A stretch of 64,000 nucleotides of DNA from the NCBI GenBank assembly GCA_963666285.1, contig OY762711.1. One strand, written 5' to 3'. A program made the translations under genes and the position numbers. Positions 24,448 to 58,739 of the stretch are shown here, in pieces (position 1 is the first letter of the stretch; each line of letters begins with the position of its first letter). This stretch comes from Sedimentisphaerales bacterium (GTDB taxonomy: Bacteria > Planctomycetota > Phycisphaerae > Sedimentisphaerales > SM23-30). The notes beneath the pieces are model-generated. The model saw only the letters and a program-made list of their open reading frames with translations, had not been told where the DNA came from and ran no database searches.

Positions 24448-24535
24448 CAAAAGGTTCCGGTAAAAACTGAACCTTTTGGGTAAGTCCCCCCTCCCAGATA
24501 TGAACCATAAGGTACATATTTTACCGGAACTTTTT
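24448..24535. repeat. Inverted pair of palindromic sites upstream of integrase
   Basis: AAAAGGTTCCGGTAAAA (24449-24465) vs TTTTACCGGAACTTTTT (24519-24535), 16/17 match; the left site is itself CAAAAGGTTC-N11-GAACCTTTTG. Confidence 0.7.
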
Positions 24536-24561
24536 TATAGCAGTACAATTTATACAATAAT

Positions 24562-25800: not shown

Positions 25801-25857
25801 GCTACCCCCATAATCGGTTAAATATTCATAAACCGTCTTTTTCTTTTTTTTATAACC

Positions 25858-26640
25858 ATGTCTGACCCAATCCAAGAATATGCACTAAATGCAATTTACG
25901 AAAAGCATTACAGCACAATTGAATCAATAATTGATACAGAAGATAAAGAGATAATAGATAATGCTCTTAACGATGCATACGAATCTGGCTTAACCCGTGG
26001 GATTGCAGAACATCCAAGATATACACGTATAGATATCGAAGGCAGAGATGGATGTTATGCGATATACAGAAAAAAGCCTGAAAGCAACACGATTACAACA
26101 GAAGTCCTTACTCCTGGCGTTAATCTAACGATGAAAACACCTGTGGATGATACCGCATTACAAATGGAATCCGCTGATCTTATTTATGAACTTATTCAAG
26201 GTGGAGAGCCAGCAATAGATGAACTTGATTGTTATTTACGACCATTCGAACATTTGGCCTGTAATAAAAATACGGTCAGAACAAACAAGGAAACTAAAAA
26301 GGAGCAGCCTTCGCTTGAAAAAATAGCAATCGAGCATTCAGGGGTAATGAACGATAAATTACCTGAAGGATATTCTCCAATAGAATACTTAGAAGATATG
26401 GGAGAGTTGGAGTATGAAATAAGCGAACTGGTACAGGAAGGAAAAGAATATCTTGCCAAAAATAAATATGATATGGCTTCACTTATATTTAAGGACGTAT
26501 CTAACCTGCAGAGCATACATGACAGCTTGACTGAAGCAGAAATAAAAGAAGTAATTGATGTTGTAGAAATTATGGATACTGCTGCAAGGGATCATATACC
26601 AAACAGGCTTTATAGTAATATCTATAAGATGAAATATTAA
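25858..26640 (+). CDS. Hypothetical protein, tandem paralogue A
   Basis: 260 aa; aligns end to end with the next gene. Confidence 0.75.
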   Translation: MSDPIQEYALNAIYEKHYSTIESIIDTEDKEIIDNALNDAYESGLTRGIAEHPRYTRIDIEGRDGCYAIYRKKPESNTITTEVLTPGVNLTMKTPVDDTALQMESADLIYELIQGGEPAIDELDCYLRPFEHLACNKNTVRTNKETKKEQPSLEKIAIEHSGVMNDKLPEGYSPIEYLEDMGELEYEISELVQEGKEYLAKNKYDMASLIFKDVSNLQSIHDSLTEAEIKEVIDVVEIMDTAARDHIPNRLYSNIYKMKY

Positions 26641-26697
26641 CCCCCTAAATCAGTTAAATATTCATAAACAGTTTTCATATTTTTCGTTTTGATACCC

Positions 26698-27462
26698 ATG
26701 ACTGACCCATTTCAAAAAACCGCAATAAATGCAATATATCAGAAATATTACAATAAGCCAGGCACTTTAATAGATACAGAAGATTCAGAACTGATAAGCA
26801 ATTCACTCAACGATGCCTATCAATCAGGATTAAATCGCGGACTCTTAGAACACCCAACATACAGGCAAATTGACATAGAAGGTTTGCTCGGACATTATGC
26901 CACCTATAAAAGAGAGCCAGATAGTAATATAATAACAACTGAAGTCCTAACCCCTGGAATAGAACTGGTAATTAAAACTTCTGTAGATGACTACGAAGAA
27001 CAACGATATGCTACAGAACAAATTTATAGGTTACTGGAATGTGAAACACCAACAGACAAGGATATTGATAAATATATGCGACCTTTTGAACATCTCTCCT
27101 CCAAGACAAGCAAACAAAAGAATGAACCTAAACCATCCTTAGAAAATATTACAGCGGAGTATAATTGTGGTATTTCTAGTAAGCTACCTGATGGTTATCA
27201 TTTAGTTGACTACATGGAAGATATTGGCGAATTAAAATTTGAGATTGATGAACTAATACATAAAGGAAAACTATCTGTAGAAAAAGCGAATTATCGTATG
27301 GCTGTATCCGAGTTTAAAGATGTTACTGACTTAAAGAGTATTCGGGCTTACTTATTACAAGGTAAATTTTCTAATGCAATATCTGGAATTGACAAACTTG
27401 ATACCAAAGCGAGGGAACACATACCCAATAGATTGTATGGGAAAATATACAAGATGGAATAA
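26698..27462 (+). CDS. Hypothetical protein, tandem paralogue B (start set to ATG 26698 by alignment)
   Basis: MTDP vs MSDP start; shared IDIEG, TTEVLTPG, RPFEHL, LPxGY, ARxHIPNRLY. Confidence 0.75.
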   Translation: MTDPFQKTAINAIYQKYYNKPGTLIDTEDSELISNSLNDAYQSGLNRGLLEHPTYRQIDIEGLLGHYATYKREPDSNIITTEVLTPGIELVIKTSVDDYEEQRYATEQIYRLLECETPTDKDIDKYMRPFEHLSSKTSKQKNEPKPSLENITAEYNCGISSKLPDGYHLVDYMEDIGELKFEIDELIHKGKLSVEKANYRMAVSEFKDVTDLKSIRAYLLQGKFSNAISGIDKLDTKAREHIPNRLYGKIYKME

Positions 27463-27531
27463 CAAACTTGCCTTACAAGTAAATCATCGTTAATATATTC
27501 AGATAACATTATGTAAATATGGAGAAATAAC

Positions 27532-27930
27532 ATGGAACTTAACATTATTGACTATTCATCACTCTGGTTCTGTGATATCAATAAAGAACCGCTTCCAGCT
27601 AAAAGGAATGGCAAATTCATCTTACTCATAAATGAAACTTCAAGGTGGGCAGTATTTTCTCCGAAGGCTCTATCCCCGTACCATGCTAATATTGCTGAAA
27701 GATTTTGTAGCCAACAAAATATCCCTGGGACATATAATGCAGCAAAATCTAAATATTATATCAGCGATCCTACCTGGAATATAAATGGTGGCGGCAGATG
27801 GGATATTGATGATGAGCAGAACTTGCTAACCATATATGGCTCTTCAGATGCTTATGGTAGCCTTGATCTTCACGGCTTATCTCGCATGATCGAAGAAACT
27901 GGTAAATATGAGAATGTGTGGGTGCGTTGA
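27532..27930 (+). CDS. Janus/Ocnus (PHPT1)-like phosphohistidine phosphatase fold protein
   Basis: GKFILL...YHANI...GGGRW...IYGSSDAYG parallels PHPT1 FKYVLI...YHADI...GGGRI...VYGYSMAYG; GGAG SD present. Confidence 0.6.
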   Translation: MELNIIDYSSLWFCDINKEPLPAKRNGKFILLINETSRWAVFSPKALSPYHANIAERFCSQQNIPGTYNAAKSKYYISDPTWNINGGGRWDIDDEQNLLTIYGSSDAYGSLDLHGLSRMIEETGKYENVWVR

Positions 27931-28098
27931 GAAAAAGATATAACCTCTCATATTCCACTGTTAATTTTATCCGCCAATGAGTCCCAATGTACACCAAATT
28001 CATTTACTAGCATTTGTACATCAATAGAACTTTTCATATTGAAAAGCTGACCTGCAATGTAGTGGAGTTCGTAAAGACAAATACCATAAATATGCGTT

Positions 28099-28314
28099 TT
28101 ACTTCATAAGCGAAAAAATACGCTCCTCTCTTTTTGTTGTTATTCCTTTATGCTCTTTTACAATTCCAAGTGACTTCATTAACTCCAACGCTTTAATCGC
28201 AGTACGCCATTGTGTTTGCGTTTTTATGGAAATTTGCCTTACCGACAACTCTTTTTCTGATTCTAAGAGTGATTTTATCAAACCAACGATATCTGGCAAT
28301 GTTCTTCTTATCAT
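28099..28314 (-). CDS. Small winged-helix transcription regulator (archaeal style)
   Basis: 71 aa; LSVRQIS...WRTAIKALELMKSLGIV. Confidence 0.7.
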   Translation of the reverse strand: MIRRTLPDIVGLIKSLLESEKELSVRQISIKTQTQWRTAIKALELMKSLGIVKEHKGITTKREERIFSLMK

Positions 28315-28452
28315 ATCAGTATAACTATGCAGATACCTTTTTATACTACCTCTGCACAGTTATACATATATTGAATAAATTTTTCACTTTTGACTATGTT
28401 TCCGTAGTTAAAGGGAACTAAATATATAAAATGAAAGATAATACAGGTTAAT

Positions 28453-28587
28453 ATGATTGACAAAACAATAAAGGAAATACAGAAAATCATTAACATCTAT
28501 GAGAAAAAAGAAATTTCCGAAAAAGAAGCAATAGAAAGAATCCAGGCAAAGATTGATCTAGTCACTTTTGGATATATGAACAACTAA
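28453..28587 (+). CDS. Small hypothetical protein (~44 aa)
   Basis: MIDKTIKEIQKIINIYEKKEISEKEAIERIQAKIDL...; TATA-like ATATATAAA about 22 nt upstream. Confidence 0.4.
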   Translation: MIDKTIKEIQKIINIYEKKEISEKEAIERIQAKIDLVTFGYMNN

Positions 28588-28595
28588 TTTCATAC

Positions 28596-29885
28596 TTATT
28601 TTGGAATGCATACGACTTTGGAAAAACAAAATTCTTGAAACCCAATGTTTCCGTATTCTTTCGAATTCCCTGAATATTTAAGTCCACCAAATGGAATACT
28701 AGGATTCCAATGATTCGTATTGTTGATCTCAATTGTGCCAGCATTTAGTTTAGATGCAATATTAAGCGCAGTATTCTTATCATTTGTAAATATATTTGCC
28801 CCTAAATCAAATTTGACTGAATTTGCAAGCCTAACCGCCTCATCATCACTTTTGAATGTAATGATTGGTAAAATTGGACCAAACACTTCTTCGTTCCATA
28901 CTTTCATTTGTTCATTAACATTAGATAAAAGCGTAGGTTGAAAAAATAATGGATTACTGTAATCTGTATTGTTCTTATGTTCAATTGCTCCATTATTTAT
29001 TGCATCTTTATACTGCTCACAAATCTTTTTGAAAAAAATATCGTTAATCAACGGCCCAAGTTCTGAAAAGTTATCATTTGGGTCACCAATCTTCTTTTTA
29101 CCAATACAGAATAACATTTTTTCAACAAATTCGTCAATTTTATCTTCATGAATAATTACTCGTTTTATTGCATCACAATACTGACCGTTATTAAAGAATC
29201 TCTCAAAATATATTTTGTCAATAATGCCATCAATGTCTGCATCATTAAAAATAATTGCAGGATTCGATCCACCTAGTTCAAGGTTTGGAATAATGTTTTT
29301 TGGAAGTAAATCCTGTGAAATTACCTTACCAGTCTCTCTACTGCCTGTAAACCAAACACCGTCAATATCTTGGCTAATCATTTTTTCTCCAAGAGTTTTA
29401 TCTCCTTGAAATAATTTCAAATAATCAGCTAAATCAGTTTGAGATAATAATTCATTCATTATTTTTGAAAAATTTTTGCTATACTCTGAGAATTTAACTA
29501 CAACCGTGTTACCAACAAGTAAATTTGGGATTACTCCTGATATAAATATTCCAAATGGAAAGTTCCAAGGAAGAATGACAGCATATAGACCCTTTGCTTG
29601 ATATTAGATTTTTGATATTTGCTTTTTATTTTCAAATAATATTTTATCAGCAATTGACTTTTCTACGTTATTTAAGTACCAATCAAATACTTCTAAATTG
29701 AAATCAATTTCAGCCATAGATTGACCAATAGGTTTATTTGTATCAACCGTTATCGAGTTTGCAATAATATTTTTGTTGCTACAAATCAATTCAAATAGTT
29801 CCTTTATAATATCTATTCTATATTCCAAACCGTTTTCAGACCATGCGATTTGAGTATCCTTTAAATGTTTAATAGTTTGTTCCAT
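28596..29885 (-). pseudogene. Aldehyde dehydrogenase interrupted by one in-frame TAA (29604-29606)
   Basis: The 93-aa and 287-aa ORFs share a frame; the intervening sequence encodes ILPWNFP...GNTVVVKFSE; FTGS, LELGG, GQYC and EEVFGP are present. Confidence 0.88.
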
Positions 29886-29887
29886 TG

Positions 29888-30559
29888 TTATAACATAAAT
29901 TTAGTTCTTTCGTATGACTTGTATAGTACAGCAATCCCTTTTTTGTCTTTGAGATAAATAGGGTATTTTTCAAAATCGAATCCATTAATATTCGCTTTAA
30001 CACAATCACTAAATATCAATGAATAATTATCTGAATCTTGATGTTTTAAAGCCATATAGCTTGAAATTAATTCTGAATGGAAATTTGCTGATATATCAGA
30101 TACTAATCGATTGCTAAATGAAGTATATTTAGGACTAAATATATAATCTTTATTATTGACCTTAATAATTAGATAATTGTGGGGAACGTATCCTAATTGG
30201 GCATATTTCTCGCCAGCAGGAGTTTGCTCAATTATATTTTTTTTATATTTTTCTTCAATTATCCCATAACCCCTAAGCATTTCAATGTTTTTACATCCTT
30301 TAGATATAAGAGCGATTGCTGTTGCGACTGAATATTGATCGCAACCTGAATAGAACCGCTCGTCAAACACTTCTTCATACAACCTTTTTACAAGATCTTT
30401 TTTGTGTATTGCAATCAGAATACTAACAATAGTTTCATCAACAAAATCTGGGTTGTAAGTAATTTCCGAAAATTCTTCCAACCATTTGTTATAGGCTTCA
30501 TTGTCTTTGATATTTTCATTCATATAGAATTTTGATTCATGTTCATTCATGTTTTCCAT
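29888..30559 (-). CDS. Hypothetical protein, possible transglutaminase-like Cys-His motif
   Basis: 223 aa; SGCDQYS...PHNYL; coupled to the ALDH. Confidence 0.55.
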   Translation of the reverse strand: MENMNEHESKFYMNENIKDNEAYNKWLEEFSEITYNPDFVDETIVSILIAIHKKDLVKRLYEEVFDERFYSGCDQYSVATAIALISKGCKNIEMLRGYGIIEEKYKKNIIEQTPAGEKYAQLGYVPHNYLIIKVNNKDYIFSPKYTSFSNRLVSDISANFHSELISSYMALKHQDSDNYSLIFSDCVKANINGFDFEKYPIYLKDKKGIAVLYKSYERTKFML

Positions 30560-30953
30560 TTTTCTTCTCGTAGTCCTCTATTAACCAGACACTCGTTTTA
30601 TTCTCACTAATCATATTATCAATAATATTATTAATATTATGATTAGATAAATCATCAAAGGATGATTTGGTATAATCTATGCCACATAGCAATTGGTCTA
30701 TTGACAATATAAACTTTTGCATACCTGTAGATTTAAGCCCTCCATTATCAATAATAATCACATTTATATTTATTCCTTTTGAGACCGCTTCTTTAAGTGC
30801 TAAGATCGCAGAATGCCGTAATCCTCCATCGCCTAAAATTGCAAAAACATTATTTTGACCAGATAACCTTGAACCAAATGCACTAGCTATTGAACCGCCA
30901 AGACACAGAATTGAATAATAACATATGTAATTCCTCTCTTCCTCAAAGAAGGA
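30543..30953 (-). pseudogene. 5'-truncated TPP-binding domain (IorA-like C-terminus)
   Basis: Open frame with no start codon ahead of the TPP motif: LCLGGSIASAFG...AILGDGGLRHSA...VIIIDNGG..STG.Q (GDG...N TPP motif). Confidence 0.75.
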
Positions 30954-30986
30954 TTAGATGTGCGTTTAAGTCTTCGGGAGATTCAT

Positions 30987-31511
30987 TCAAGAATTATTCA
31001 TTAGATACTTTTGACAGTATTTATGACAACCTTCAATTTCTAGATTTACCTTGCAAAAATGAGCTACATCTTTACACGCAGAGAAATATCCAAGATTAAT
31101 GATGTCAGATTTTATTTCATTATCATAGGCATCGAAAACATCTTTGGTCAAGGTATTTGTAAAAAAGAACACATCAGTATCATTTAATGTAGTATTTAAT
31201 GATAAGTTTAATGATGGATAATAGTCATCGCAGTATTTTTTACAATTTGGTGTAAACGGATATTTTTTGCAATGATTAATAATCTCTGAACATGTTGAAA
31301 AATATTCATTTGTTATTTTATTTACTTGTTCAGCTAAAGGTAAATCATCAAAATTCGATTGAATATAGAATTCTGTTCCCGCTGAATCACTGGTAATTAC
31401 ACTTTCAGTTGAGAAAATCCTTATCCTAAATAAAACAATTATCAACAATAAGGTAAAAATACATATCCCTATACTCAATGCAGGATGTAGCTCTGTATTT
31501 CCCGTTGCCAT
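30987..31511 (-). CDS. Membrane-anchored Cys-rich hypothetical protein
   Basis: N-terminal TM helix; repeated C..HC...C.KYC motif; TTTATAAA 22 nt upstream. Confidence 0.65.
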   Translation of the reverse strand: MATGNTELHPALSIGICIFTLLLIIVLFRIRIFSTESVITSDSAGTEFYIQSNFDDLPLAEQVNKITNEYFSTCSEIINHCKKYPFTPNCKKYCDDYYPSLNLSLNTTLNDTDVFFFTNTLTKDVFDAYDNEIKSDIINLGYFSACKDVAHFCKVNLEIEGCHKYCQKYLMNNS

Positions 31512-31619
31512 TTTATTAACTTATTATCATTTCTTTATAAACATTTTTATCGAAAGATTATAAAAATAAGTAGTAATGTTTATAAAGTTAGAATTCACAA
31601 TTAAAATCTATGGGGGAAA

Positions 31620-32606
31620 ATGATGAAAAATAGTTTAGCTGTTATATTAACATTTCTTTTTGTGCTTACATCTTGTTTAAGCGGTTGTACTTCACACGAA
31701 TTAAACACAGAAAAGCCTTATTCTGAAGTTACAAACTTAGAGGCAACTGAACAAGAAAAAATAATTGTTGATGCTGAGTCTAGCGAAAAAAAGATAGAAT
31801 CACAAGCCCCAACTTATATTGGTAATTTTAGAGTGCAAGACAACGATAGAGAATTAGAAATAATATTTAGTCTTTATGATCCTTCTAAAGCATACATGTC
31901 CTCAAATGGTTATGTATCCATAAGGATAGAATCAAATAATGGAAAGACTTTGTATTTAGATAATCATCGTGTTCTTGAATCTGACTTTTCAACATTTACC
32001 CAGACATTGACAGGAGAACAATTTGAAGCGTATTCATGGAAAATACCTCTTTCTGAAATTAATAAATCAGAAAGTTGGAGTGGTATGGCATATATTCAAT
32101 TTAAGTCGGAAAATGGAATAATATTTGAAGAACTTTCTACATCAGTGTTTGGGTTACCTGAATATTCAAAAGATGAGTTAGATATAATTTCAAGCCTTGA
32201 ATTTAGTAAAAATGCAGTGGTAATCAATAAAACTATTAAACAGGATGGTTTAGAAGTTACTTTAAAACAAATAGGGTTTTTCATTAAAAATGAGTATGAT
32301 ACAAAAACGACTTATTATAGAGCTGATTTTATTGTTTATAATTACGGAAGAGAAGCAAGTAGAATATCTTCTTATAACGGCTACTTAATTCATAATAAAA
32401 GTCAATACGACAGAAGTTACAACAGTAACCTTGATGTATATGACTTAAAAACTGGCATACAAAGAGAAGGATATTTACTTTTTGACAATGTTCCAAGTAA
32501 TCTGGCAGGAGAAATAATCATTAGTGCAGGATCTGCATATGATCGCAACTATAATAATATCGACTACACATTTAGAATTAATCTTGATGACTACACTACT
32601 AAGTAA
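31620..32606 (+). CDS. Putative lipoprotein with C-terminal DUF4352-like domain
   Basis: Lipobox LSGC; ADFIVYNYG...REGYLLFDNVP. Confidence 0.65.
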   Translation: MMKNSLAVILTFLFVLTSCLSGCTSHELNTEKPYSEVTNLEATEQEKIIVDAESSEKKIESQAPTYIGNFRVQDNDRELEIIFSLYDPSKAYMSSNGYVSIRIESNNGKTLYLDNHRVLESDFSTFTQTLTGEQFEAYSWKIPLSEINKSESWSGMAYIQFKSENGIIFEELSTSVFGLPEYSKDELDIISSLEFSKNAVVINKTIKQDGLEVTLKQIGFFIKNEYDTKTTYYRADFIVYNYGREASRISSYNGYLIHNKSQYDRSYNSNLDVYDLKTGIQREGYLLFDNVPSNLAGEIIISAGSAYDRNYNNIDYTFRINLDDYTTK

Positions 32607-32783
32607 AATGTGCAAAACCGTTTTAACAATAAACTGGTTTTTTAAGATGTAGGCATAATGAAATTAATGAATGAATGTGGCGTAGTATTTTACGAATGCA
32701 AATGTATTATTATTTTCTTTATTTTACATTTATTTATTTATTTATTTGTATGCAAATACTCAAATAATACATGTTATTTGATT

Positions 32784-35700
32784 CTATGCCTTTGAATCCA
32801 AATATATTTTAAGGTGCTTATCCTTTGCCTTCAACTTAACATTCTTTAATGCAAGCCGCACATCTTCTTCATCCCATTTATTTTTGATGCAAAAATTAAC
32901 CAGATATGTCAAATCCACATTATTCTCATAATGAGTCTGCAACCAATGAGTAAGTTTATTTATATTCGTCAAATTTGAATGTCTAGGATGCTTTTTTAGA
33001 GTCATGCTACTTAAGTTCTTTTTATTCTGCTGTAACTCAATGATCGCAGTATCAATGTCGCCCCATTCCCAATCATGTTCTCTTAAATGCTCTACAATTA
33101 AAAACAGTTCATGACCAGCCATTAGCTGTTTTTCTATATGATGTTTAAGGACTTCAATTTTATTACCGTGAAGATGATCATCATGCTGATGTAAATAATG
33201 GATATGATGATGACCTTGAGCCTTAATAATATGTTTTGGTAATAGTTTAACTAGAATATTTTTCCATTTTACAGGCATATACATATAAATCAATATCATC
33301 GCTGAATAGAAGTATATACTGCACAATGCAATTGCCATAAAAAATAGTACAATGACATTATTGATCCCTTGCAGAATTCCTATTAACGAAGAAGATGTAA
33401 ATAAGTAATATAGAGATTTCCCAAGAAAGATAACATACATAAACAGACTTTGAATATATAATACATCATAAAATACAACTGCTACTACTGAAAATATAAC
33501 TATAAGACTTGTTATTTCTTTCTTAGCCTTGAAATCAATAAATACTAATGGTAATGTTGATATTATACATATTATTCCTATTATAATCTTATCGTGAGGT
33601 ATTGCTTTTGTTAATATATCAACACCTGCCAACACTCCTTGTTCAATATTAATTGCTTTGAATTCAAATGCAGGATTCAGTAAAAAAGCTGAAAAACTCA
33701 TCGGGAATAAAAATGTTAAAATCATACCAAATTTATAATGCCAATTACTATCTTTATTTTTTAACAAGTTAAATATGGACATTTCGTTTAATGGTTTATT
33801 TTTATGCTTAAATTCATACGACCATATCCAAATCGGAATAAATAACACTAAAAATAATGAAATTATATTTAGTAGGTATGCAGTAAAAAACTGAAAAATA
33901 ATTGGTATTGAAAACCCGACGATGCTGAGTGAAAATAAACTTTCATTTCCAAATACTGAGAATATCGGCATATGACCTGCTGAAAGAATATTTATATATA
34001 CGGGGTCTAGAAATCCCAATGTATATGGGATAACATATATACCTATTTCAGTAAATATGTGCAAGACAAACATTCCTGCAAGTCCCAACGGTAAAAATTT
34101 TGGATGATGAAATAACTCAATCATCCTTTCATAAAAGGTATCTGGCGTTTCAGAGATTGACTCTATTATATGCATCGGTGTTTCTTTATAATGTCTTTTT
34201 ATTCTTTTTGACACAATAGATATAAGTGAAAGCATTAACACAGCAACCAAAATAGGAGCATCTACTGCTATTGCCAGCCACTCAAACATAAGGTTGAAAA
34301 CTAATATGAAAAAGAAAACTTCAACAAATAATATCTGGACAAATCTTATAATAAATCCTTGATGTGTTTTTGTATGATGTATAAATAATGCTCCAATCAA
34401 AGATTCTTTATGCACATGCTTATTAATAGTAAGATATATCGCAACAATAAATAGCCCTAAACAGCCCAATATAAATGTAATTGAAATCACATATGTGCTA
34501 TGATTTATAATGTATGCATACAAATCTCTAACAAAGCTGGTTTCATTCCATGTAGCTTTTGCAACACCTATTAAGTTTTTTATCGTAAGTAGAAAGTACG
34601 ATATCAATAATAGTATATCTGCACCAATTTTTCGTTTCCCAAATAAAACCTTAGTTATGCCAATATGATTAAATATTATTGCAAGCAAAATCCAGGATAT
34701 GACTTTTTTGAAAAAATCAACATCACCTGGCAGAATTTTCATGAAATCAATAATGTTAAGTACAATAAGTGATAATAATATTAAAAATTCTAGTCCGCTT
34801 GCAGTTTTTATAAAGAAAAATCTTATCGGATGTTTTACTGCATTTATTGCCTCAGTGATTGCTTCTTTATCAGCATGATGTTCATCCAGATAGTTTTTTA
34901 TTTGATCTAACGAATATCTTTTTCGTAATAAAATCTTAATTTTTTTAACTAATAGATATGCGTTTGGACTGTGTGGCTTTTCTCTTGTAAAATGCGAGAT
35001 GGACATAAAGAATGTAATTAAAATTATTACAGCAATCAAAGGAGGGTACAGGTTTTCATAGCCAGATTCTTCCTGTTTTACTAATAATATATCTCTTGCA
35101 ATAGCTAGAGTTTCCCCCTCATTCATACAATCTTCATCGGATATTTTCTTTATCTTAAGTTGAATCTCTTCACCCTTTAAGAGCTTATCAAAATGCCAAG
35201 CAACCATAGGGTCTTCATCAATTATTTCAAATTCCATGTTAGATTCTAACTCATCGCTTTGTTCTTTAATTATTTCCAGCAAACATTTTGGAATATATTC
35301 GAAGATAGATACATTATATAAGATTGTTTCATTGTCTTTGAAATCAACATTGATGTTGTATATGGTTTCATTACCTTTTTGAACATAAGTTTTGGTTAGA
35401 TTAATAACCTCTTTAGTTTTCTCAGCATCTTGATGTAACTTTTCAACTTCATCCTCTGTAATATTATTGTGTTCGACAATAACTTGAATCATATCAGGAT
35501 TTATATTTTTATTATTGAATGCGTATTGAAATGATATTTCTTTGAATTGATTAAGCTGACTTGTATTAAACTGTATTACTGGATCACGCTCTATTATGAT
35601 GAAAGGATCTATTTTTATGATATCATCTGTTGTCTCGGCTACTGATTTAGCAATTTTTATTGTTATAGTCACATTCTTTAAATCAAAAGCTTTGGCTTTA

Positions 35701-41063: not shown

Positions 41064-41090
41064 CTCTACTCTAATTTTGGGGCAGAAGTA

Positions 41091-41156
41091 TTTATAAACC
41101 TTTTTATACTATTTAATTGGATTGGTTTAATAATAATTTGAAGTAATATTTATAAA
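41091..41156. promoter_or_regulatory. Divergent archaeal-type TATA promoters
   Basis: TTTATAAA at 41091-41098 (preceded by AAAAAGG on the minus strand, 27 nt before ATG 41063) and at 41149-41156 (22 nt before ATG 41179). Confidence 0.65.
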
Positions 41157-41178
41157 TTTAATATATTTAACAAAATGT

Positions 41179-42129
41179 ATGGATGAAGGAAATAATAAAC
41201 TTAATCATGTAATTTTATTGGATGGTGATTCTTCTGTTGACGGATTTCTTGGTGGAAAAGGTAAATCATTGCAAAAATTAAAAAGGGATGGCTTTCCATC
41301 TTTGCCAGGATTTGTTATTACTTATAGATATCTTAAAACTATTTTAGATTCCCCACAACTACAAAATGAATTAAGGAGCTTTGATGAGATCTCACACAAA
41401 GACTTAAAGTCCTTAAAAGAATTAAGCAAATCGATAACATCACAATTAGAGTCAATTTCAATTTCTGAATCTTTTAGAGAAGAAGTGTTTAAAGTATATG
41501 ATGATTTAAACTTATCTAAAGTGGCAGTTAGAAGTTCAGCTTTGATGGAAGACTCTTCTGCAAATTCATGTGCTGGATGCCTGGAAACGTTTCTTAATGT
41601 ATCAAAAAACGAACTAATAAAAAATATTGTTAATTGTTGGAAATCATTGTTTTCTTTAAGATCACTATATTATCTAAAATCAAAGAATATTCAATCTCAA
41701 GACCTTATTATGTCTGTTGTAATCCAAAAAATGGCAGAACCTCGTGTAGCTGGTGTTTGTTTTACAAGAAACCCTGTTACATCAAATCCGCATGAAATTC
41801 TTATTGAAGCCGGAATTGGTTTAGGGGAAGTAGTGGTCAATGGATCAATAACTCCGGACAGGTATATTGTTGACGAAAACTTTAATATATTATTAATAGA
41901 GGTTGGTAAGCAGGATACAATGATATCTACCAATAGTGATGGCATTGTAAACGAGAAATGTACTTTTGAAGAATCAGCTAGTCAAAAATTACCTGACAAA
42001 CATATAATTGAACTTTCTAGGATAGCAAAAGATATTGAAAAAGCAAATGGTATGCCTATGGATATCGAGTGGGCATTGACTGAAGTTGGGTTAATTATTC
42101 TTCAGGCAAGACCAATTACAACATTATGA
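41179..42129 (+). CDS. PEP/pyruvate-binding (PPDK_N, ATP-grasp) domain protein
   Basis: GGKG..L, VAVRSSA..ED..S.AG, GLGE.VV.G..PD, DIEWA...LQARPIT. Confidence 0.9.
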   Translation: MDEGNNKLNHVILLDGDSSVDGFLGGKGKSLQKLKRDGFPSLPGFVITYRYLKTILDSPQLQNELRSFDEISHKDLKSLKELSKSITSQLESISISESFREEVFKVYDDLNLSKVAVRSSALMEDSSANSCAGCLETFLNVSKNELIKNIVNCWKSLFSLRSLYYLKSKNIQSQDLIMSVVIQKMAEPRVAGVCFTRNPVTSNPHEILIEAGIGLGEVVVNGSITPDRYIVDENFNILLIEVGKQDTMISTNSDGIVNEKCTFEESASQKLPDKHIIELSRIAKDIEKANGMPMDIEWALTEVGLIILQARPITTL

Positions 42130-42762
42130 AATTTGTTGCAATACGTCAAAAACATCTTCAATAATTTTGATTTGTGCATCTGCATTACAATGGTTTGGGT
42201 TTTCATTGAATTCTATGCAAAACATATTTGCAGATTTTGCAGAGCATACTCCATACTCCGAATCTTCAATCACAACGACTTCATTATTACTTAGATTAAG
42301 TTGTTCTAGACAATTCAAATATGGTTGAGGGTCAGGTTTTAGAAGTTTACAATCATCTTTAGTTACAATTTTCTCAAAATAATGTATTAAGCCTTTTTCT
42401 TTCAATATTTCATAAACAAATTCTTTACTTGAAGATGTAACTAGGGCTAATCTATATTTTTGCTTTAAGCTTTCAAGAGTTTTGTGAACATTTGCCATTA
42501 TTTCAATATTTTCATAAAATGAATCAGAGTTGATTATTGTTATAAAAGACTTTTCTAGTTTGTCTACAATTTGAATGTTCAGATTATTATTTTGGACAAT
42601 ACTTCTAAATATATTTATAGAAGACATCCCCTTAAACACCCCCCAATTGATATTATTGGTGTTTATGCCATATTCGATACATGTTTCTTTTTGTGCTTTG
42701 GAGTAAGCATTCTCCGAATTTATAATTACTCCATCTAGGTCAAAAAGTATTGCTTTAATCAT
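42124..42762 (-). CDS. HAD-superfamily phosphatase (beta-PGM-like)
   Basis: FDLDGV, VTSS, KPDP, IEDS..GV motifs. Confidence 0.9.
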   Translation of the reverse strand: MIKAILFDLDGVIINSENAYSKAQKETCIEYGINTNNINWGVFKGMSSINIFRSIVQNNNLNIQIVDKLEKSFITIINSDSFYENIEIMANVHKTLESLKQKYRLALVTSSSKEFVYEILKEKGLIHYFEKIVTKDDCKLLKPDPQPYLNCLEQLNLSNNEVVVIEDSEYGVCSAKSANMFCIEFNENPNHCNADAQIKIIEDVFDVLQQIS

Positions 42763-43693
42763 TTAATTTCTTTAAGTATATCTTATCCGCTAAACAATTT
42801 TTTAATCCAGTCCTATGACATACTTTTGTTTCTGGAAATGGTATTTGTAAGTCTTTTGATATACTGATTCTTTTGTCCTGTGCAATTTGATAAAGGCATG
42901 GGATATAATAATCGTTGTAAATGTTTTTGAATCTGCATAGTTGGTTTTCTGATTGTTTTGGCAGATTATCCGTATATAAAACACCCTTTGTAAAAATGTC
43001 TAAATTCAATCTCCCTTCGTAAGTGTCAATTAGCTTTTGAATAATAGTATAATATTCATTAAATGGAATTATGTACTCTTGATTGTCATTCCAATAATCT
43101 TCCTCATCTCTAATTAGTCCGATTGTTAATGTTTCAATATTTGGCAAATTTGTTTCAACGTATTTTATGACTTCTGTAAGTTGGTTCTTATTATATTGAG
43201 TCATTAAAAATACTAATTTGACTTTGTAAAATTTAGAGTATTCGTTTATATTTTCTGTAATGTCTTTAAGTGGTTTGAATGATTTATCTTCTGCCTCTAA
43301 AGATTGGAAACTAATTCCTAGTTTGATATTTTTATGTTTTTTATCTAAATTACGCAATAAATACCCATTAGTATATACACCTACTGTTTTATTTTGAGAT
43401 TCAAGATATGTAATAAATTTATTTATATCTTTATGGATTAACGGCTCTCCGCCTTGTAAATCGTATTTCTCAATTTGTGGGTTATTTTCGACGATTTTTT
43501 TGATATGCCCTAAATCCATAACATTTCTTCTAGCCATACTTTTGTTATTAAAACAATAAGCACAATTTAGATTACAATCACTTGTTATAAATAGCAGAGC
43601 AGTTTTTGAATAATGCTTATATTGCTCTTTCCACCTATTTGGATCAATTCTTAATTTGAACCTTTTATGATTCTTATTTGCAACTTGCTCCAT
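42755..43693 (-). CDS. Radical SAM protein
   Basis: CNLNCAYC, GGEP, TNG; additional C-terminal cysteines. Confidence 0.9.
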   Translation of the reverse strand: MEQVANKNHKRFKLRIDPNRWKEQYKHYSKTALLFITSDCNLNCAYCFNNKSMARRNVMDLGHIKKIVENNPQIEKYDLQGGEPLIHKDINKFITYLESQNKTVGVYTNGYLLRNLDKKHKNIKLGISFQSLEAEDKSFKPLKDITENINEYSKFYKVKLVFLMTQYNKNQLTEVIKYVETNLPNIETLTIGLIRDEEDYWNDNQEYIIPFNEYYTIIQKLIDTYEGRLNLDIFTKGVLYTDNLPKQSENQLCRFKNIYNDYYIPCLYQIAQDKRISISKDLQIPFPETKVCHRTGLKNCLADKIYLKKLND

Positions 43694-43797
43694 TTATAAG
43701 TGGAATATCTATTACTTTATAAACATTATTAAGGCATTTGGATAAAACAGTGCCAATTAAAAGAAAACTTTTTAATAAGTTATATTTTGATATTTAT

Positions 43798-44916
43798 ATG
43801 GTCACTGTAGATGGAACAGAATTTAAGCTGATGGGATATGAACGCTTTTTTGAGGTACAGGGAGCTTCTTATTTATTTAGCAGTTTTTATGCAAAGCTTT
43901 ATTCTGATTTAGGATTACTTATTATCAATAATGATGGTTTCGTTTCATTATTTTTGGATAAAAATAAGGTATCAAAAAACCAAAGAGATTCTTTTGCATT
44001 TTATAGTAGTTTAGATGAATTTCAAAACTATCTTACTTCTTTCAAACAATTTCTTTCTGAATCAGACTCTTTTTTTGAATCAATATTGTCTAAAGAGAAA
44101 ATTACAAGCTTAGATTTAAATACTTATTTCAAGCAGATCATCAAATTCTTTAATTTCTATAAATGGACTGAATTCTTTTATAGCGACTATTCTTACATTG
44201 CTGTTAAAGATAATTCTACGCTAAAGAATGGTACACTTGAAAATAATTTATTGCAATTAGGGGAAATCAAAACAGATGGGAGAATTCTTTTGAATAAGAT
44301 ATTTAATAAATCCGATTCTTATTTGAATCGTTTTTTAGATAAAATTGCTAAACTTAAACCTATAAATAGGGATGATTTGAAACTGCTTACTTATTCAGAA
44401 ATTGTCATTTACTTTGATAACGGAGTAGTGCCAAAGATAGATAACAGAAAAAATGACTTTACATTATTAACAAGCCCAGGTCTGAATTTATTAAAAAACG
44501 CCCTACATCAGGATTTTATTACGGAATTCAAGGAGCAGACTTCAGACGTTGTTAAAGGAATAGTAGCTTGTGAAGGAGCTATTGAAGGTACTGTTAGAGT
44601 TTTAGATTTCAACTTTGATAATTTTGATATTCTATTTGATTTAATTAATGAAATGAATGATGGTGAAATATTGGTGGCAGAAACAACATCTCCTGACATA
44701 TTTCTTGCGTGCGAAAAAGCTTCAGCGATTGTTACTAATCAAGGTGGTGTAGGATCACACGCTGCAATTGTTAGCAGAGAAATGGGTATTCCGTGTATCG
44801 TTGGAACTAAAGATGCAACTAAAGTATTGAAAACTGGTGACTTGGTAAAAGTTGATGCGTTTAAAGGAGTAGTTCAATTTATCAAAAAAGTGCCAAGGAA
44901 TGAAGATGGAAAATAA
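43798..44916 (+). CDS. PEP-utilising enzyme, phosphohistidine mobile-domain protein (start revised to ATG 43798)
   Basis: GEILVAETTSP...GGVGSHAAIVSREMGIPCIVG; GAAAACTTTTTAAT box about 22 nt upstream of ATG 43798. Confidence 0.88.
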   Translation: MVTVDGTEFKLMGYERFFEVQGASYLFSSFYAKLYSDLGLLIINNDGFVSLFLDKNKVSKNQRDSFAFYSSLDEFQNYLTSFKQFLSESDSFFESILSKEKITSLDLNTYFKQIIKFFNFYKWTEFFYSDYSYIAVKDNSTLKNGTLENNLLQLGEIKTDGRILLNKIFNKSDSYLNRFLDKIAKLKPINRDDLKLLTYSEIVIYFDNGVVPKIDNRKNDFTLLTSPGLNLLKNALHQDFITEFKEQTSDVVKGIVACEGAIEGTVRVLDFNFDNFDILFDLINEMNDGEILVAETTSPDIFLACEKASAIVTNQGGVGSHAAIVSREMGIPCIVGTKDATKVLKTGDLVKVDAFKGVVQFIKKVPRNEDGK

Positions 44917-45364
44917 AATAATTGTTTTAGTTTCTTCTATTGCCATAAAAAATAACAAATTATTAATTGTACATAATAAATGGTCTGATGATAGATTTGG
45001 ATGGACTTTACCTTGTGGACATGTTGAACCAAATGAAAAGCTGGATGTAGCAGTTAAACGAGAATTTATGGAAGAAACTGGTTTACAACCATTAGAGCCG
45101 TTTAAGTTTGAGTTTTTATTACAAGTGAAAAAAGCTACAACAATGATTTATCATTTTTTTTATTCAATAACTAGATTTGATGGAGTTCCGCATGTAAACA
45201 ATGACCCTGATACTATCATTACTAATCTGGAATATTTTTCATTTTCAGAGGGTGTGTCTAAAATCTTATATGAAGATGTCAGATTTGCATTAAACAAATG
45301 GAACTCAAAAGAGACTGCTAGTCCATTATTTTATGACTTAACTACTCCTAGAGAACATTTATAA
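44900..45364 (+). CDS. NUDIX hydrolase
   Basis: GHVEPNEKLDVAVKREFMEETGL Nudix box. Confidence 0.9.
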   Translation: MKMENKIIVLVSSIAIKNNKLLIVHNKWSDDRFGWTLPCGHVEPNEKLDVAVKREFMEETGLQPLEPFKFEFLLQVKKATTMIYHFFYSITRFDGVPHVNNDPDTIITNLEYFSFSEGVSKILYEDVRFALNKWNSKETASPLFYDLTTPREHL

Positions 45365-45388
45365 AATATTTGAGACTCCATATTAGTT

Positions 45389-46906
45389 ATGAGTCCAGCA
45401 AAAAATGATTCAAGTGCAAGAGATGAATTGATGAGATACATTTCTGAGAAGGGATTGGTCTATGGCCCTAGCCCTAATATATACGAAGGTGGTGTTAGCG
45501 GATTTTATGATTTCGGCCCTTTAGGGAAATCATTAAAGAACAATATTGAAAATTCAATTAGAAAAGCATTTGATATCTTTTCTTTTTATGAAGTTGAATG
45601 TCCAATTGTTGTTCCTGAAAAGGTTTGGAAAGCCTCTGGTCATATTGATGGTATTTCTGATCCTATTGTAACTTGCTCTAAGTGTAATGCTGTTTGGAGA
45701 ATTGATAATTTAATAGAAGAGCAAAATTCTGATATTGATGCTGAAAACATGACTACTAAAGACATGTCTGATTTCTTATCAAACAATGAAGTTATTTGTC
45801 CTAGTTGTAAGGTTAGGTTGCCTTCTGAAGTAAAAGAACATAATCTTATGTTAAAGACAACAGTTGGTTTTGGGACTCCTATGTATAATAGACCTGAAAC
45901 AGCAACTACTACCTATTTACCATTCTTAGAGTATCTTAGATTTTTTAGAGATAAACTACCTTTTGGAGTCTACCAAATTGGAAATGCCTATAGGAATGAG
46001 ATTTCACCAAGACAGCATTTACTAAGAGGTAGAGAGTTTACGCAAGCAGAAGCACAGCTATTTCTTTTTAAGGATCAAAAAGAGAACTTTGCAAAGTTCG
46101 AAGAAGTTGCAGATCTGGAATTACCGTTTTTAACTGCTGATGCTCAATTTAATAATGGAAATGTAATTACAATGTCACTGGCTGATGCAATTACTAATAA
46201 GGTACTTAAAAATAAAGCTTATGCCTGGACGTTGGGGATGACTTATAAATTATTTAGAGATTTAGGAATTCCTCGTGAAAATTTAAGATTTAATCAACAC
46301 TTACCAGACAAGCTTGCTTTTTATGCTGATGATGCATGGGATTTAGAGGTGAAATTCAAAAGTTTTGGTTGGGTTGAATGTTGCGGTTGTCATGATAGAA
46401 CCGATTATGACTTAACAACTCATAGTAAATTTAGTGGTAAAGAGTTAGTTGCATTAAATTTGACTACAAACAAAAAGGAAACACCTCATATCCTTGAAAT
46501 TGCTATTGGGCCAAATAGGCTTCTTTTGGCTGTTTTAGACTTAAATTTAGATTTAGGAATTGAAGGTGTCAGTAAACCCAAGTTAAAGCTTCCATCAAGC
46601 CTTTCTCCTATTAAAGTAGCTATTTTACCATTGTCAAAAAAAGAGCATATATTGGAAAAATCCGAAGAGATTTATTTGAATTTGAACAAAAAGATGAGAG
46701 CTCAATTAGATGAATCTGGAAGCATAGGGAAAAGGTATTTAAGACAAGATTCTATAGGTACTCCTTTTTGTATCACTGTTGATTTTGATTGTTTAGAACA
46801 AGACAATGAGAATTATGGAAAAGTAACAATTAGAAATAGAGATTCAGAAAAACAAGAAAGGGTAAAATTTGACAATATTGAATCTTGGATTGCTACAAAG
46901 TTATAG
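45389..46906 (+). CDS. glyS: Glycine--tRNA ligase, alpha2 homodimeric, archaeal/eukaryotic type
   Basis: GFYDFGPLG, WKASGH, RPETA, RNEISPRQHLLRGREFTQAE, C-terminal anticodon-binding domain SIGKRY..QD.IGTPFCITVD. Confidence 0.92.
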   Translation: MSPAKNDSSARDELMRYISEKGLVYGPSPNIYEGGVSGFYDFGPLGKSLKNNIENSIRKAFDIFSFYEVECPIVVPEKVWKASGHIDGISDPIVTCSKCNAVWRIDNLIEEQNSDIDAENMTTKDMSDFLSNNEVICPSCKVRLPSEVKEHNLMLKTTVGFGTPMYNRPETATTTYLPFLEYLRFFRDKLPFGVYQIGNAYRNEISPRQHLLRGREFTQAEAQLFLFKDQKENFAKFEEVADLELPFLTADAQFNNGNVITMSLADAITNKVLKNKAYAWTLGMTYKLFRDLGIPRENLRFNQHLPDKLAFYADDAWDLEVKFKSFGWVECCGCHDRTDYDLTTHSKFSGKELVALNLTTNKKETPHILEIAIGPNRLLLAVLDLNLDLGIEGVSKPKLKLPSSLSPIKVAILPLSKKEHILEKSEEIYLNLNKKMRAQLDESGSIGKRYLRQDSIGTPFCITVDFDCLEQDNENYGKVTIRNRDSEKQERVKFDNIESWIATKL

Positions 46907-47047
46907 AAATTGTATTTCTTTCTTTTTAATTATCCTTCAAGAAGGATTGATAAATAAATGAAAGCTAGCATACCACTAGCCTTCACAAATGAAATTCTTC
47001 CAAAACTTTCCATATGAATATCAAATAAAAACTAAGAAAATAAGAGA

Positions 47048-47896
47048 TTAGTCTCTTTTTCTTCTACTTAAATATGTTAGAATTCCTGTTGCAGCCAAAC
47101 CTAATGTTCCTGGCTCTGGTACAATTGGAGTATAGTCTTCTGAAACCATCACTCTTCCTGCTCTTCCGCCAAAATCATCTCCCGCTAAGTACATATTACT
47201 ACCATCTATAGCAACATCAGTAAGATTTCCATAATCCCTTCCAAGCATATATTCAGCTACAATACCTTTACCAACTCCACCTTCTAAGATAGTTTGATTG
47301 TCAGTTGTAAACAAGAAAGGCATACTTGCCAAACTTGAACCTGTACCGTTACCAAGTCCAGTGATTGAGCTTGTACTATTAAAAGCAAGATCAGTAGTTG
47401 TGATTGAACCATTTAATAGATTAAGCAAATCTAATCTATAATCATTATTACCAAGACTTTTTACTAATGGAGCATAATCGCTTCCGTTTAATGAAAAAGC
47501 ATCACCAACACCCTTATATGCACTAGCTACACCAAATGAAGCATTATCGAACTCATTACTTCTATTATAAATTTCTAAATCTCCATTCTGAAGATCAAGT
47601 GCGTAATTAATACCATTTTTATTCCAATTACCAGTATCTTGTACACTACTTGCATTACCTACAGTAGTTTCAAAAGTTAAATCTTTTCCAGAATCTACAG
47701 CAGCACCACCAGTACCGCTAGCATAGATTTTATCATCAGTTGTAGTAATACCTACTAATGGACCAGGCAACAAAACATCCTTATCAATGTTTATTGTCTT
47801 TGTAAGTGCTGCATCTGCATTTGGGGCTCCGGCAATACCAGCAGCCAATAAAGCAAGCCCTGTAAGTGGCTTTTTTAGGAAATTTGGAGTTTTCAT
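47048..47896 (-). CDS. PEP-CTERM sorted surface protein
   Basis: Signal peptide; VPEPGTLGLAATGILTYLSRRKRD. Confidence 0.85.
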   Translation of the reverse strand: MKTPNFLKKPLTGLALLAAGIAGAPNADAALTKTINIDKDVLLPGPLVGITTTDDKIYASGTGGAAVDSGKDLTFETTVGNASSVQDTGNWNKNGINYALDLQNGDLEIYNRSNEFDNASFGVASAYKGVGDAFSLNGSDYAPLVKSLGNNDYRLDLLNLLNGSITTTDLAFNSTSSITGLGNGTGSSLASMPFLFTTDNQTILEGGVGKGIVAEYMLGRDYGNLTDVAIDGSNMYLAGDDFGGRAGRVMVSEDYTPIVPEPGTLGLAATGILTYLSRRKRD

Positions 47897-47992
47897 TTTA
47901 TTATAACCTCTTTTGGTTTATGTTGTGGAATCAGACATAGTTTATATATCTTCTCCTTTTAACTATTCCTATGTGACTACACCCTGAATCAG

Positions 47993-48639
47993 TTAAAGCA
48001 TTAGTCGTTCTAAAGCCATATCAGCATCAGAATCCATCACATCTGCATATACTTGCGTTGTTGTAATCCTGGAATGACCAAGCTGTTTTTGGACAAGTCG
48101 AAGGTTACAATCGCTTGCCTTATATAAAAAGGTAGCGTATGTATGCCGAAGACTGTGGATCGAATACTGCGAGTCAAGTTTAGCTTTTTTGGCACAACGC
48201 TTGAAAGCTTTCTGTAAGGCTCTGGTGGTCAAATGCCCGCCTGTCCTGGTAGATATAAGTAAAGGTGCATCTGCATCTGTTGGTTCGCCAACGCTTTCTT
48301 TCCATTTCAGAAACTGAATACAGAGTCGCTTTACCTTTTTGGGCATAAATACCAAACGCTGCTTGCCGCCTTTACCATTTCTAACAAGAAGTGCCGGCTT
48401 TTTTGTATTGTTCAAATACATATCACCGCATGTTAAAGCTGCAAGCTCCATTACCCGAAGTCCGGTACTGATGGTTAGATGTGATACAAAGAAATCCTTG
48501 TATGCAACTCGTTCAGTGTAGGTCTGCGGTATCCTTGCATCCTTTTTGGTGATTTCTAGCAGCCACAAAGCCTCATTTCTGTCCAAAAACTTGTTTGGTG
48601 TCAGAATCCAATCATCCGAAATTAAGTTTTTTTATACAT
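47993..48639 (-). CDS. Xer-like tyrosine recombinase (catalytic domain only); 5' end out of frame at an A7 tract
   Basis: TGLRVMEL, GKGGKQR, HSLRHTYA, QLGH, TTQVY; AGGAG + ATG 48639 is one nucleotide out of frame with WILTPNKFLDR... Confidence 0.88.
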
Positions 48640-48659
48640 ATTCAATTCTCCTATAATCG

Positions 48660-48893
48660 AGTTCACATTTGGCGAGAAATATGAACTGAATAAAGAAGAC
48701 TTGACTTATTTAAATAATTGACTATAAAGGAGATAGGGCTTTTTGAGAGTCTTAATGAATTGAAGACAGCTTAACTAAATTAACACTGGAGAAATGTTAA
48801 AAATAGCCTATTATGGGCTGTAAAGTTGAAATTCTAAATAATTTGAAAATATGAAAGAAAAAACCAGTTCATATTTCTCGCCTTATATGAACT
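48660..48893. promoter_or_regulatory. Inverted pair of dif-like 11-6-11 recombination sites enclosing a sigma70-like promoter
   Basis: AGTTCACATTT-GGCGAG-AAATATGAACT (48660-48687) and AGTTCATATTT-CTCGCC-TTATATGAACT (48866-48893); TTGACT-N16-TATAAA at 48701-48728. Confidence 0.8.
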
Positions 48894-58736: not shown

Positions 58737-58739
58737 GGT

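Follow-up and report, generated by a model that had tools for sequence, protein, structure and literature searches.

Archaeal-type promoters in a planctomycete chromosome mark a mobile module that has probably captured archaeal DNA repeatedly

We analysed a 64,000-nt stretch (hereafter the window) of contig OY762711.1 from a Sedimentisphaerales bacterium (assembly GCA_963666285.1), in which an earlier note had described archaeal TATA boxes at a near-constant distance from start codons. Some 18 kb of this stretch, between 28.6 and 46.9 kb and here called the cargo, have the genes, promoters and codon usage of archaea and are joined to bacterial DNA. The cargo is Nanobdellota-like, this phylum consisting of tiny archaea that depend on a host. 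The cargo forms part of a mobile module (in order: an attP-like attachment site, the integrase gene intB, the cargo, a PEP-CTERM gene and a second recombinase gene, intA), which is itself nested in a 66-kb island at tRNA-Lys. This module, which the earlier note did not recognise, explains the block. On balance, we think it probable that archaeal DNA was captured by the bacterial island repeatedly, passing from archaeon to bacterium as excised integrative DNA, and, as part of the same reading and with similar confidence, that the boxes are genuine promoters of Nanobdellota type, made up of a purine-rich TFB recognition element (BRE) and a TATA box and mostly leaderless. Throughout, G000 denotes the genome of the window, G025 a related genome of the same order, and L numbers the loci we inspected.

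The motif under study is TTTATAAA, with distances counted in nucleotides from box to ATG. Its raw count is not enriched: the window holds 10 copies compared to 7.3 +/- 2.6 after shuffling, and 16 of 100 shuffles reach 10. Its position, however, is. Eight of the 10 copies lie 22-33 nt before an ATG, and an exact copy is found 19-32 nt upstream of 5/17 automatically called block genes (in these five, 22-27 nt before the ATG) as opposed to 13/4382 other genes. A BRE+TATA matrix trained solely on 149 sites from Nanobdellota loci, where the box ends 21-22 nt before the ATG in 119 cases among 686 starts, scores at least 8 at 6/19 curated block starts versus 15/3562 host starts (and 145/686 training starts). 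Restricting the comparison to AT-matched host starts leaves 9/1081, and none of 1000 dinucleotide shuffles contains six matrix matches (mean 0.17). The enrichment inside the block that the earlier note had proposed to look for is therefore present, and neither host genes nor shuffled sequence show the same positional frequency. Directly upstream of the box, matrix positions -7 to -3 are A-rich, and the six sites score 8.2-13.7, bearing out the suggestion of BRE-like flanks. The spacing, which had been likened to that of TBP/TFB promoters, matches the geometry we measured in Nanobdellota loci, and the reading of the boxes as mostly leaderless promoters of archaeal type on foreign DNA is supported. 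Outside the islands, the seven best-scoring boxes precede ordinary bacterial-looking genes (two neighbourhoods were inspected, both bacterial). Sites resembling sigma-70 promoters are plentiful yet at chance level (140 versus 123 +/- 10).

The transcription units of the cargo are as follows; the bases of assignment, where we give them, stand in brackets.

28596-30990, minus strand: partly decayed operon of an aldehyde dehydrogenase gene, a 223-aa open reading frame (ORF) and a truncated gene that we take to be thiamine pyrophosphate (TPP)-enzyme-like from its GDG motif
30987-31541, minus strand: 174-aa membrane protein, TTTATAAA (31534-41) 22 nt before its ATG at 31511 (motif and matrix)
31579-32606, plus strand: TTTATAAA (31579-86) and a 328-aa lipoprotein-like gene, box 33 nt before the start at 31620, short leader with a Shine-Dalgarno (SD) sequence
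32784-41098, minus strand: 2759-aa FG-GAP surface protein, TTTATAAA (41091-98) 27 nt before its ATG at 41063 (profile and motif)
41149-42129, plus strand: TTTATAAA (41149-56) 22 nt before the ATG at 41179 of a PPDK_N gene, phosphoenolpyruvate (PEP)-synthase-like (profile and motif)
42124-43723, minus strand: operon of radical SAM and HAD genes, TTTATAAA (43716-23) 22 nt before the ATG at 43693 (profile and motif)
43769-45364, plus strand: weak box TTTTTAAT (21 nt) ahead of a PEP-utiliser mobile-domain gene (43798-44916), which is followed by a NUDIX gene
45358-46906, plus strand: TTTATAAA (45358-65) 23 nt before the start of a dimeric glycyl-tRNA synthetase (GlyRS) of Nanobdellota type

The coordinates and distances (22, 22, 27 and 22 nt) that the earlier note quoted for this motif are exact. 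It had missed two strong sites, those before GlyRS and before a conserved 60-aa ORF further left. Its claim that boxes occur throughout the block holds for the first genes of transcription units but has to be limited to these, because the operon-internal starts at 29459, 29885, 30559, 42762 and 44900 have no box. The variants it listed are correctly spaced at 43798 (21 nt), 28453 (21 nt) and 28314 (24 nt) but score poorly (3.7, 3.5 and -0.5, respectively), and at 47896 the box lies 43 nt away from a start with an SD sequence. Boxes do stand before the two tandem paralogues at the left edge (TTCATAAA, 25 nt from the start at 25858 and 29 nt from that at 26698), but organism names in this gene family are found in Planctomycetota only.

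Base composition points the same way. GC content is 0.305 in the cargo and 0.43 in the host, and GC content at third codon positions (GC3) 0.22 versus 0.41. Codon usage correlates with that of nine low-GC Nanobdellota loci at r 0.89-0.97, which is partly a GC effect, with that of one high-GC Nanobdellota locus at 0.03, and with that of the host at 0.54. The cargo GlyRS shares 31% identity with the native enzyme of the host, and 18 of its 19 organism-named matches (among 120 matches listed) are archaeal, 17 of them from DPANN archaea. Its five closest Nanobdellota orthologues (59-62%) sit in a chromosomal context with CysRS and ribosomal protein genes, and three of them are boxed at 22 nt. Two cargo genes are already broken: the aldehyde dehydrogenase gene has an in-frame stop at 29604-06, and the TPP-enzyme-like gene is truncated. 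The 223-aa protein (29888-30559) has a sub-cut-off Pfam match to a family with a papain-like fold (E 0.003).

The surroundings are bacterial. G000 has two bacterial 16S genes and flanks with ECF/FecR and PEP-CTERM genes, and we find no match to TBP or TFB in the host genome, where four archaeal controls gave matches. A Logan contig of 36,758 nt, present in two runs of one sample, matches 30501-49121 with zero differences; this compared part includes the right junction, and if collinear the contig would start near 12364. Its depth (22.4/26.8) is close to that of the next bacterial contig (19.9/24.5). A second sample of the same study contains identical fragments of both block and flank. Since the spanning runs may come from the source sample, the stronger evidence for the join is that the arrangement recurs, as described below. 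A run of the second sample also contains a 1609-nt contig, part of which corresponds to 47593-47997; ~1.2 kb of other sequence come before that part, which suggests an insertion in the PEP-CTERM gene. Reads also appear to be cut at an (ATTT)n run (32718-32758) downstream of the giant FG-GAP gene. A search against Rfam returned no match.

The island and the module that enclose the cargo comprise, from left to right:

12168-12251, minus strand: attL of the 66-kb island, an 84-nt repeat of the 3' end of tRNA-Lys(ctt)
18558-19115, minus strand: HARE-HTH protein (HTH, helix-turn-helix), backbone, 45% to the copy in G025
19257-21338, minus strand: HerA/VirB4-like ATPase with a MarR-like winged HTH (wHTH) and a C-terminal D..E.ETG domain, candidate DNA translocase
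21335-21781, minus strand: Y, a small partner gene that stands immediately upstream of HerA in copies from both domains
21778-22518, minus strand: N6/N4 DNA methyltransferase, backbone
22502-23209, minus strand: double winged-helix regulator, backbone
24078-24291, plus strand: TTTATAAA (24078-85), 23 nt upstream, and the 60-aa Cys-rich ORF (24109-24291)
24449-24535, no strand: attP-like site with 31-nt inverted arms and a 25-nt core resembling a tRNA 3' end
24533-25800, plus strand: TATA variant TTTTATAG (21 nt) ahead of intB, which encodes a tyrosine integrase from a tRNA-targeting Nanobdellota family
25804-27462, plus strand: two tandem paralogues (25858-26640 and 26698-27462), each behind an RGTTAAA-TATTCATAAA motif
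27532-27930, plus strand: Janus/Ocnus-like gene that has an SD but lacks a box; a different part of the second island described below has a gene matching it at 58%
28099-28587: divergent pair of a 71-aa HTH-like gene (28099-28314, minus) and a 44-aa ORF (28453-28587, plus), with the weak boxes at 24 and 21 nt
47048-47947, minus strand: PEP-CTERM gene, a bacterial-type protein, ATATAAAC at 43 nt and SD
47993-48625, minus strand: intA, a short tyrosine recombinase closing the module

The intact tRNA-Lys and a bacterial-type integrase lie beyond the window (C1:3436756-3438169 in G000), 66 kb from attL, so that an integrase adjoining a tRNA gene and a direct repeat of the tRNA 3' end bound the island in the manner of bacterial tRNA-integrated islands. 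A further copy of the attachment repeat (G000:C1:3343438-3343521) lies 29 kb further left, giving tandem islands at one tRNA.

The clearest link to archaea besides GlyRS comes from intB, which has no Pfam or NCBIfam match. We kept 80 loci of its family from GTDB (85 were confirmed): by title, 34 fall under DPANN or 'archaeon', 27 under Planctomycetota and the remaining 19 elsewhere. In Nanobdellota, the family sits just downstream of tRNA 3' ends. A tRNA gene is found within 1.5 kb of intB at 19/34 DPANN loci, mostly 45-75 nt upstream and with Glu, Arg, Val, Asp and Thr among the targets, compared to 0/27 Planctomycetota and 1/19 other loci; the archaeal order is tRNA, arm, BRE-TATA, 21 nt, ATG. 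Upstream regions could be compared at 62 of the 80 loci. Inverted arms around a core are seen at 0/30 DPANN, 7/18 Planctomycetota and 7/14 other loci (the window scores 18.5), and the core is at most two mismatches from a Nanobdellota tRNA end at 13/32 non-DPANN loci, but from a tRNA of G000 at 0/32. This bacterial arrangement of arm, core and arm without a tRNA is, judging by its layout, the attP form of an excised circle. An integrated form with attL and attR at an archaeal tRNA was not found at the window locus, and the window has no tRNA. We also considered the end of an archaeal tRNA-Tyr as source of the window core and found no support (0/5 genomes).

In a quick, unrooted tree of 68 rows (branch support by Shimodaira-Hasegawa-like approximate likelihood-ratio test, SH-aLRT; 13/80 loci with short matches left out), the Planctomycetota label needs 11 changes, seven of them forced by branches with SH-aLRT of at least 95, and the window intB falls nearest a Woesearchaeota row. 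By this phylogeny intB crossed between domains several times. Copies in high-GC Phycisphaerae have a GC3 of 0.59-0.90, versus a DPANN median of 0.25 (n=28). Planctomycetota intB starts nevertheless reach a matrix score of at least 8 in 2/18 and at least 7.7 in 4/18 cases, compared to 5/269 other genes. This bears on the claim that transfer was recent, which can be upheld in part only. Composition (GC3 and codon usage) favours it, but two cargo genes are broken and box retention provides no clock for the age of transfer, because copies of intB ameliorated to a GC3 of 0.71-0.75 in high-GC bacteria (L115, L126, L124, L083) still carry a box 21 nt before the ATG. At five loci of the wider survey, L195 (G633), L166 (G831), L071, L092 and L136, contig GC or promoters disagree with the bin label, and these contigs are probably misbinned in public metagenome-assembled genomes (MAGs).

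The module recurs with different cargo. A second copy in G000 (C1:2946410-2959385), which lies in a second island, at tRNA-Asn, repeats this gene order with an intB of another family; its attachment core matches tRNA-Glu with 2 mismatches, and its cargo is a 1107-aa FG-GAP protein with a box at 22 nt. Similarity between the window and this second copy extends into the divergent HTH pair, which is conserved, and ends at 28567, while in the PEP-CTERM gene promoter and signal peptide are conserved and the body is different. A third version is found in G025, a one-contig genome, with a 1160-aa cargo protein again boxed at 22 nt; the database name of that protein is Limihaloglobus sulfuriphilus, a cultured Sedimentisphaerales species (PMC11266412). 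Across the order, intA is present in 14/201 genomes. Among 15 further intA loci that we inspected, L053, L054 and L062 show the PEP-CTERM gene followed by DPANN-style genes with boxes at 20-21 nt (a DUF5678/retropepsin gene, a RelE-like pair and a gene with what we take to be an archaeal pilin-like N-terminus), and many others carry bacterial cargo only. Related islands thus appear to have picked up archaeal DNA several times. In the same-genus genomes G001-G003, block and intA were not found with these queries, and a search of G000 with 1255 Nanobdellota proteins returned no further archaeal block.

The backbone to the left of intB has a different distribution. Besides its HerA-fold ATPase (best fold match 4d2i), the HerA protein has a MarR-like wHTH (Z 11.5, root-mean-square deviation 3.4, 76 aligned) and a tail that resembles nucleases solely in its motif, an invariant D..E.ETG; a fold search of the tail returned the wHTH part only, with the C-terminal domain barely covered. 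HerA stands beside intB at 10/27 Planctomycetota and 0/34 DPANN loci, the wHTH gene at 13/27 and 2/34, and the methyltransferase at 11/27 and 1/34. The HerA family is nonetheless present in 41/401 genomes of the phylum Nanobdellota (including the unpublished G703 and G856, and G831, apparently misbinned). There, Y-HerA adjoins tRNAs and integrases in G690 and G564, and tRNAs in G665, G706 and G823. In G835, G546 and G566 (L175-L178, L179), it is surrounded by core genes, which suggests a domesticated DNA translocase. A HerA tree of 32 rows needs two domain changes, one of them forced, and splits almost cleanly by domain. Homologues of the 60-aa ORF, a candidate directionality factor or regulator, are found at 17/27 Planctomycetota, 2/19 other and 0/34 DPANN intB loci; a degraded second copy of it at 23313-~23500 has a TTTATAAA too.

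How might archaeal DNA have come to lie here? We envisage that tRNA-integrated elements of Woese- and Pacearchaeota excise, at times together with chromosomal DNA such as GlyRS, and would pass into cells of Phycisphaerae. Cell contact is the likeliest route, the Y-HerA translocase possibly acting as a pump by analogy with TdtA of Thermus. There the incoming DNA would be inserted by recombination in a distantly related island already present, away from attP, which would thereby stay unused; intA is the candidate recombinase. The island could subsequently spread among bacteria by way of its own tRNA integrase. In the bacterium, the cargo promoters are probably silent or read by accident, and the cargo would decay.

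Several observations weigh against this account. Strong taxonomic evidence is limited to GlyRS and intB; for the remaining cargo genes, an archaeal origin is supported by promoters, base composition and weak matches, and the FG-GAP profile is found in just 1/341 Nanobdellota genomes. The best database match of GlyRS is 74% among the matches listed, so no donor is known, and none of the five orthologous Nanobdellota loci shares neighbours with the cargo (0/5). The window's own attachment core matched no tRNA searched. Most rows of our quick, unrooted SH-aLRT trees are MAGs, some in apparently wrong bins, and the two runs that span the block belong to one sample, which may be the genome's source. 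Retention of boxes in ameliorated bacterial intB genes is unexplained by simple decay.

The main rival starts from the retained boxes. If the element returned to Nanobdellota cells, it would have reason to keep archaeal integrase, attP and TBP/TFB promoters while using the bacterial integrase in Phycisphaerae, a proposal that strikes us as rather unlikely. It would account for arms and boxes that persist in high-GC Phycisphaerae where intB itself is ameliorated, for the TATA-like 6-mer frequently found at 21-23 nt from the ATG of the bacteria-only 60-aa gene, upstream of it (a post hoc observation), and for Y-HerA beside tRNAs in five Nanobdellota genomes, in two of them with integrases. Yet HerA splits by domain, and HerA, intA, the paralogues, the 60-aa gene and the PEP-CTERM gene are found within 10 kb of intB at 0/34 DPANN loci. 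We also considered PEP-CTERM as a Nanobdellota gene and found no support for this; in a weak search it turned up in 1/301 Nanobdellota genomes, on an apparently misbinned contig of 63-68% GC. Less likely still is a scenario that requires no contact, in which the island is a general capture platform for free environmental DNA, old archaeal gains spread among bacteria, and bacterial polymerase or an activator of the element has since come to recognise their AT-rich boxes. The presence of intB in bins of Opitutales, Zixibacteria, Sumerlaeota and others, the many intA loci with bacterial cargo only, and an RGTTSA motif before boxes of backbone genes (6/25 versus 6/215 controls, post hoc) fit this scenario, but donors skewed to one host-dependent archaeal phylum, recipients skewed to one bacterial class, an 18-kb cargo that is contiguous and unameliorated, and an attP in excised-circle form do not.

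An assembly chimera, with a co-sampled archaeal contig joined into the bacterial chromosome, might be suspected of a genome that is apparently metagenome-derived, has 2.6% contamination and is spanned by runs of a single sample. Flat depth and full agreement over the right junction in both runs, identical pieces of block and flank in a second sample, the same architecture twice in G000 and again in one-contig G025, tRNA attachment repeats that bound the island, and the lack of a further archaeal block largely refute this explanation, to which we give very little weight. Lowest of all we place the idea that the motif simply arises from AT richness. It would fit a window total no higher than in shuffles, but is at odds with the positional enrichment over AT-matched host genes and shuffles and with the same 21-22 nt peak in Nanobdellota; it is refuted for the six strong sites and may hold for the weak variants. 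Repeated capture from archaeon to bacterium thus remains the reading we prefer.

Some further features of the islands deserve mention. In the same island beyond the window (G000:C1:3427427-3428576; L013:3427-4576), two convergent genes, one encoding a nucleotidyltransferase-like product and the other a 108-aa protein without assigned function, each have TTTATAAA 22 nt before the ATG, and the second island has another such boxed site at C1:2963636-2964091. In bacterial elements, an RGTTSA motif followed 4-8 nt later by a TATA-like box stands upstream of the 60-aa gene and the paralogues; it recurs even in genomes of 55-65% GC (seen post hoc) and is a possible operator of the wHTH protein. A metagenome scan with the paralogue gave one short locus, again downstream of an integrase of intB2 type, and the Atlas gave no usable match. 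The repeat at 25804, 26640 and 47979 was tried as attL/attR of the block and rejected, because it is absent from the matching place in the second copy and fits the promoter-like motif of the paralogues. The ATG of intA in the second copy aligns with TTA in the window (48586-48640), where the gene may have lost its start or been shortened. A 29-nt inverted repeat upstream of intA (48660-48893), present in the second copy too, is a candidate binding or recombination site of intA. Both islands contain a PP2C-FHA / kinase-FHA / vWA triad (L013:9198-12178; C1:2967631-2970703), and the first additionally encodes type I restriction (54469-62523), ArdC and a ParB-like protein. A 1281-aa protein at 13830-17675, without Pfam family and 43% identical to a gene in a related element of G349, is possibly a defence gene. 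Elsewhere in G000 (C1:5226832-5229866), an array of nine tRNA genes probably sits on another mobile element. Among the island proteins scanned we find neither MOB relaxase or mating-pair genes (several large ORFs are without family) nor a Pfam match to capsid or terminase, and IMG/VR holds no relative of the paralogue, intB or HerA.

Individually, the parts are of known kinds: archaeal promoters, tRNA-targeting elements and genomic islands. Like archaeal leaderless promoters, those described here have an A-rich BRE, a TTTAWAWA box ending 21-23 nt before the ATG and no SD; unlike them, they stand in a bacterial chromosome without a TBP or TFB match and are known from sequence alone. Archaeal integrases prefer tRNA 3' ends (PMC8371274), and pNOB8/SNJ2-like elements, as described there, share with our module an intact tyrosine integrase beside att and that preference, whereas here attP and intB lie unintegrated inside a bacterial island; the term 'DPANN' does not occur in that review. 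The tRNA-integrated, excisable ICETh1 of Thermus thermophilus encodes in TdtA a hexameric ATPase reported to push DNA to contacting cells and to move chromosomal markers (PMC5365140). Our island likewise combines tRNA integration, a methyltransferase and a HerA-like ATPase with a nuclease-like tail, but no NurA or type II restriction nuclease was seen adjoining HerA by Pfam (the tail being barely covered by the fold search), transfer here would cross domains, and the likeness is one of description rather than sequence comparison. Integrons have been described as cross-domain capture platforms by which bacteria recruit archaeal genes (PMC9668308), and also place tyrosine recombinases beside variable cargo; the present cargo, in contrast, is a multi-operon block with its own promoters, not a set of single-gene cassettes. 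Against the IntI profile TIGR02249 (cut-off 265), intA scores 80 bits and intB has no match, and a repeat search of the window found no array, the attC model itself not having been run. Nor does the backbone qualify as a Ced import system: HerA scores 73 bits against CedD (cut-off 600) and 57 against CedB (cut-off 700), also misses the VirB4 cut-off, and its partner Y is without Pfam family.

Sharing of genes on small plasmids between DPANN archaea and Omnitrophota or Patescibacteriota has been published (bioRxiv 10.64898/2026.05.20.726742), and likewise involves cross-domain transfer with Nanobdellota and mobile elements, but at the level of protein clusters and with symbiont-associated bacterial partners; the string 'Phycisphaer' is absent from the main text. 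The main text of a survey of 208 complete Nanobdellota genomes mentions neither integrases nor planctomycetes, and the DPANN host pairs it reports have archaeal hosts (bioRxiv 10.64898/2026.05.13.725050). Our literature search met no paper on a recurring Nanobdellota-to-Phycisphaerae module, which is not proof of absence given that preprint supplements and most subscription papers were unsearchable. To our knowledge, hosts of Woese- and Pacearchaeota have not been established.

What the islands suggest about these organisms follows from the lineages involved. That related islands appear to have taken up archaeal DNA more than once is a hint at close contact between these bacteria and the archaea. 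We put forward, tentatively and as something well short of an even chance, that Woesearchaeales and Pacearchaeales attach to Phycisphaerae and that integrative elements repeatedly cross this contact, perhaps both ways, retaining TBP/TFB promoters, attP and an archaeal integrase during their time in bacteria. The flow of Nanobdellota integrase-attP modules and multi-operon DNA, which recurs and is skewed by lineage, names Phycisphaerae as a candidate bacterial partner, with intB, attP and intA as markers by which a partnership could be tested. It is also a warning against treating every DPANN-like gene in a planctomycete MAG as contamination. As one copy is found in a cultured species, the activity of archaeal promoters in a bacterial cell and attachment-site recombination across domains are directly testable. 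Should contact prove to be the route, the islands would document, in genome sequence, that DPANN archaea have a bacterial host.

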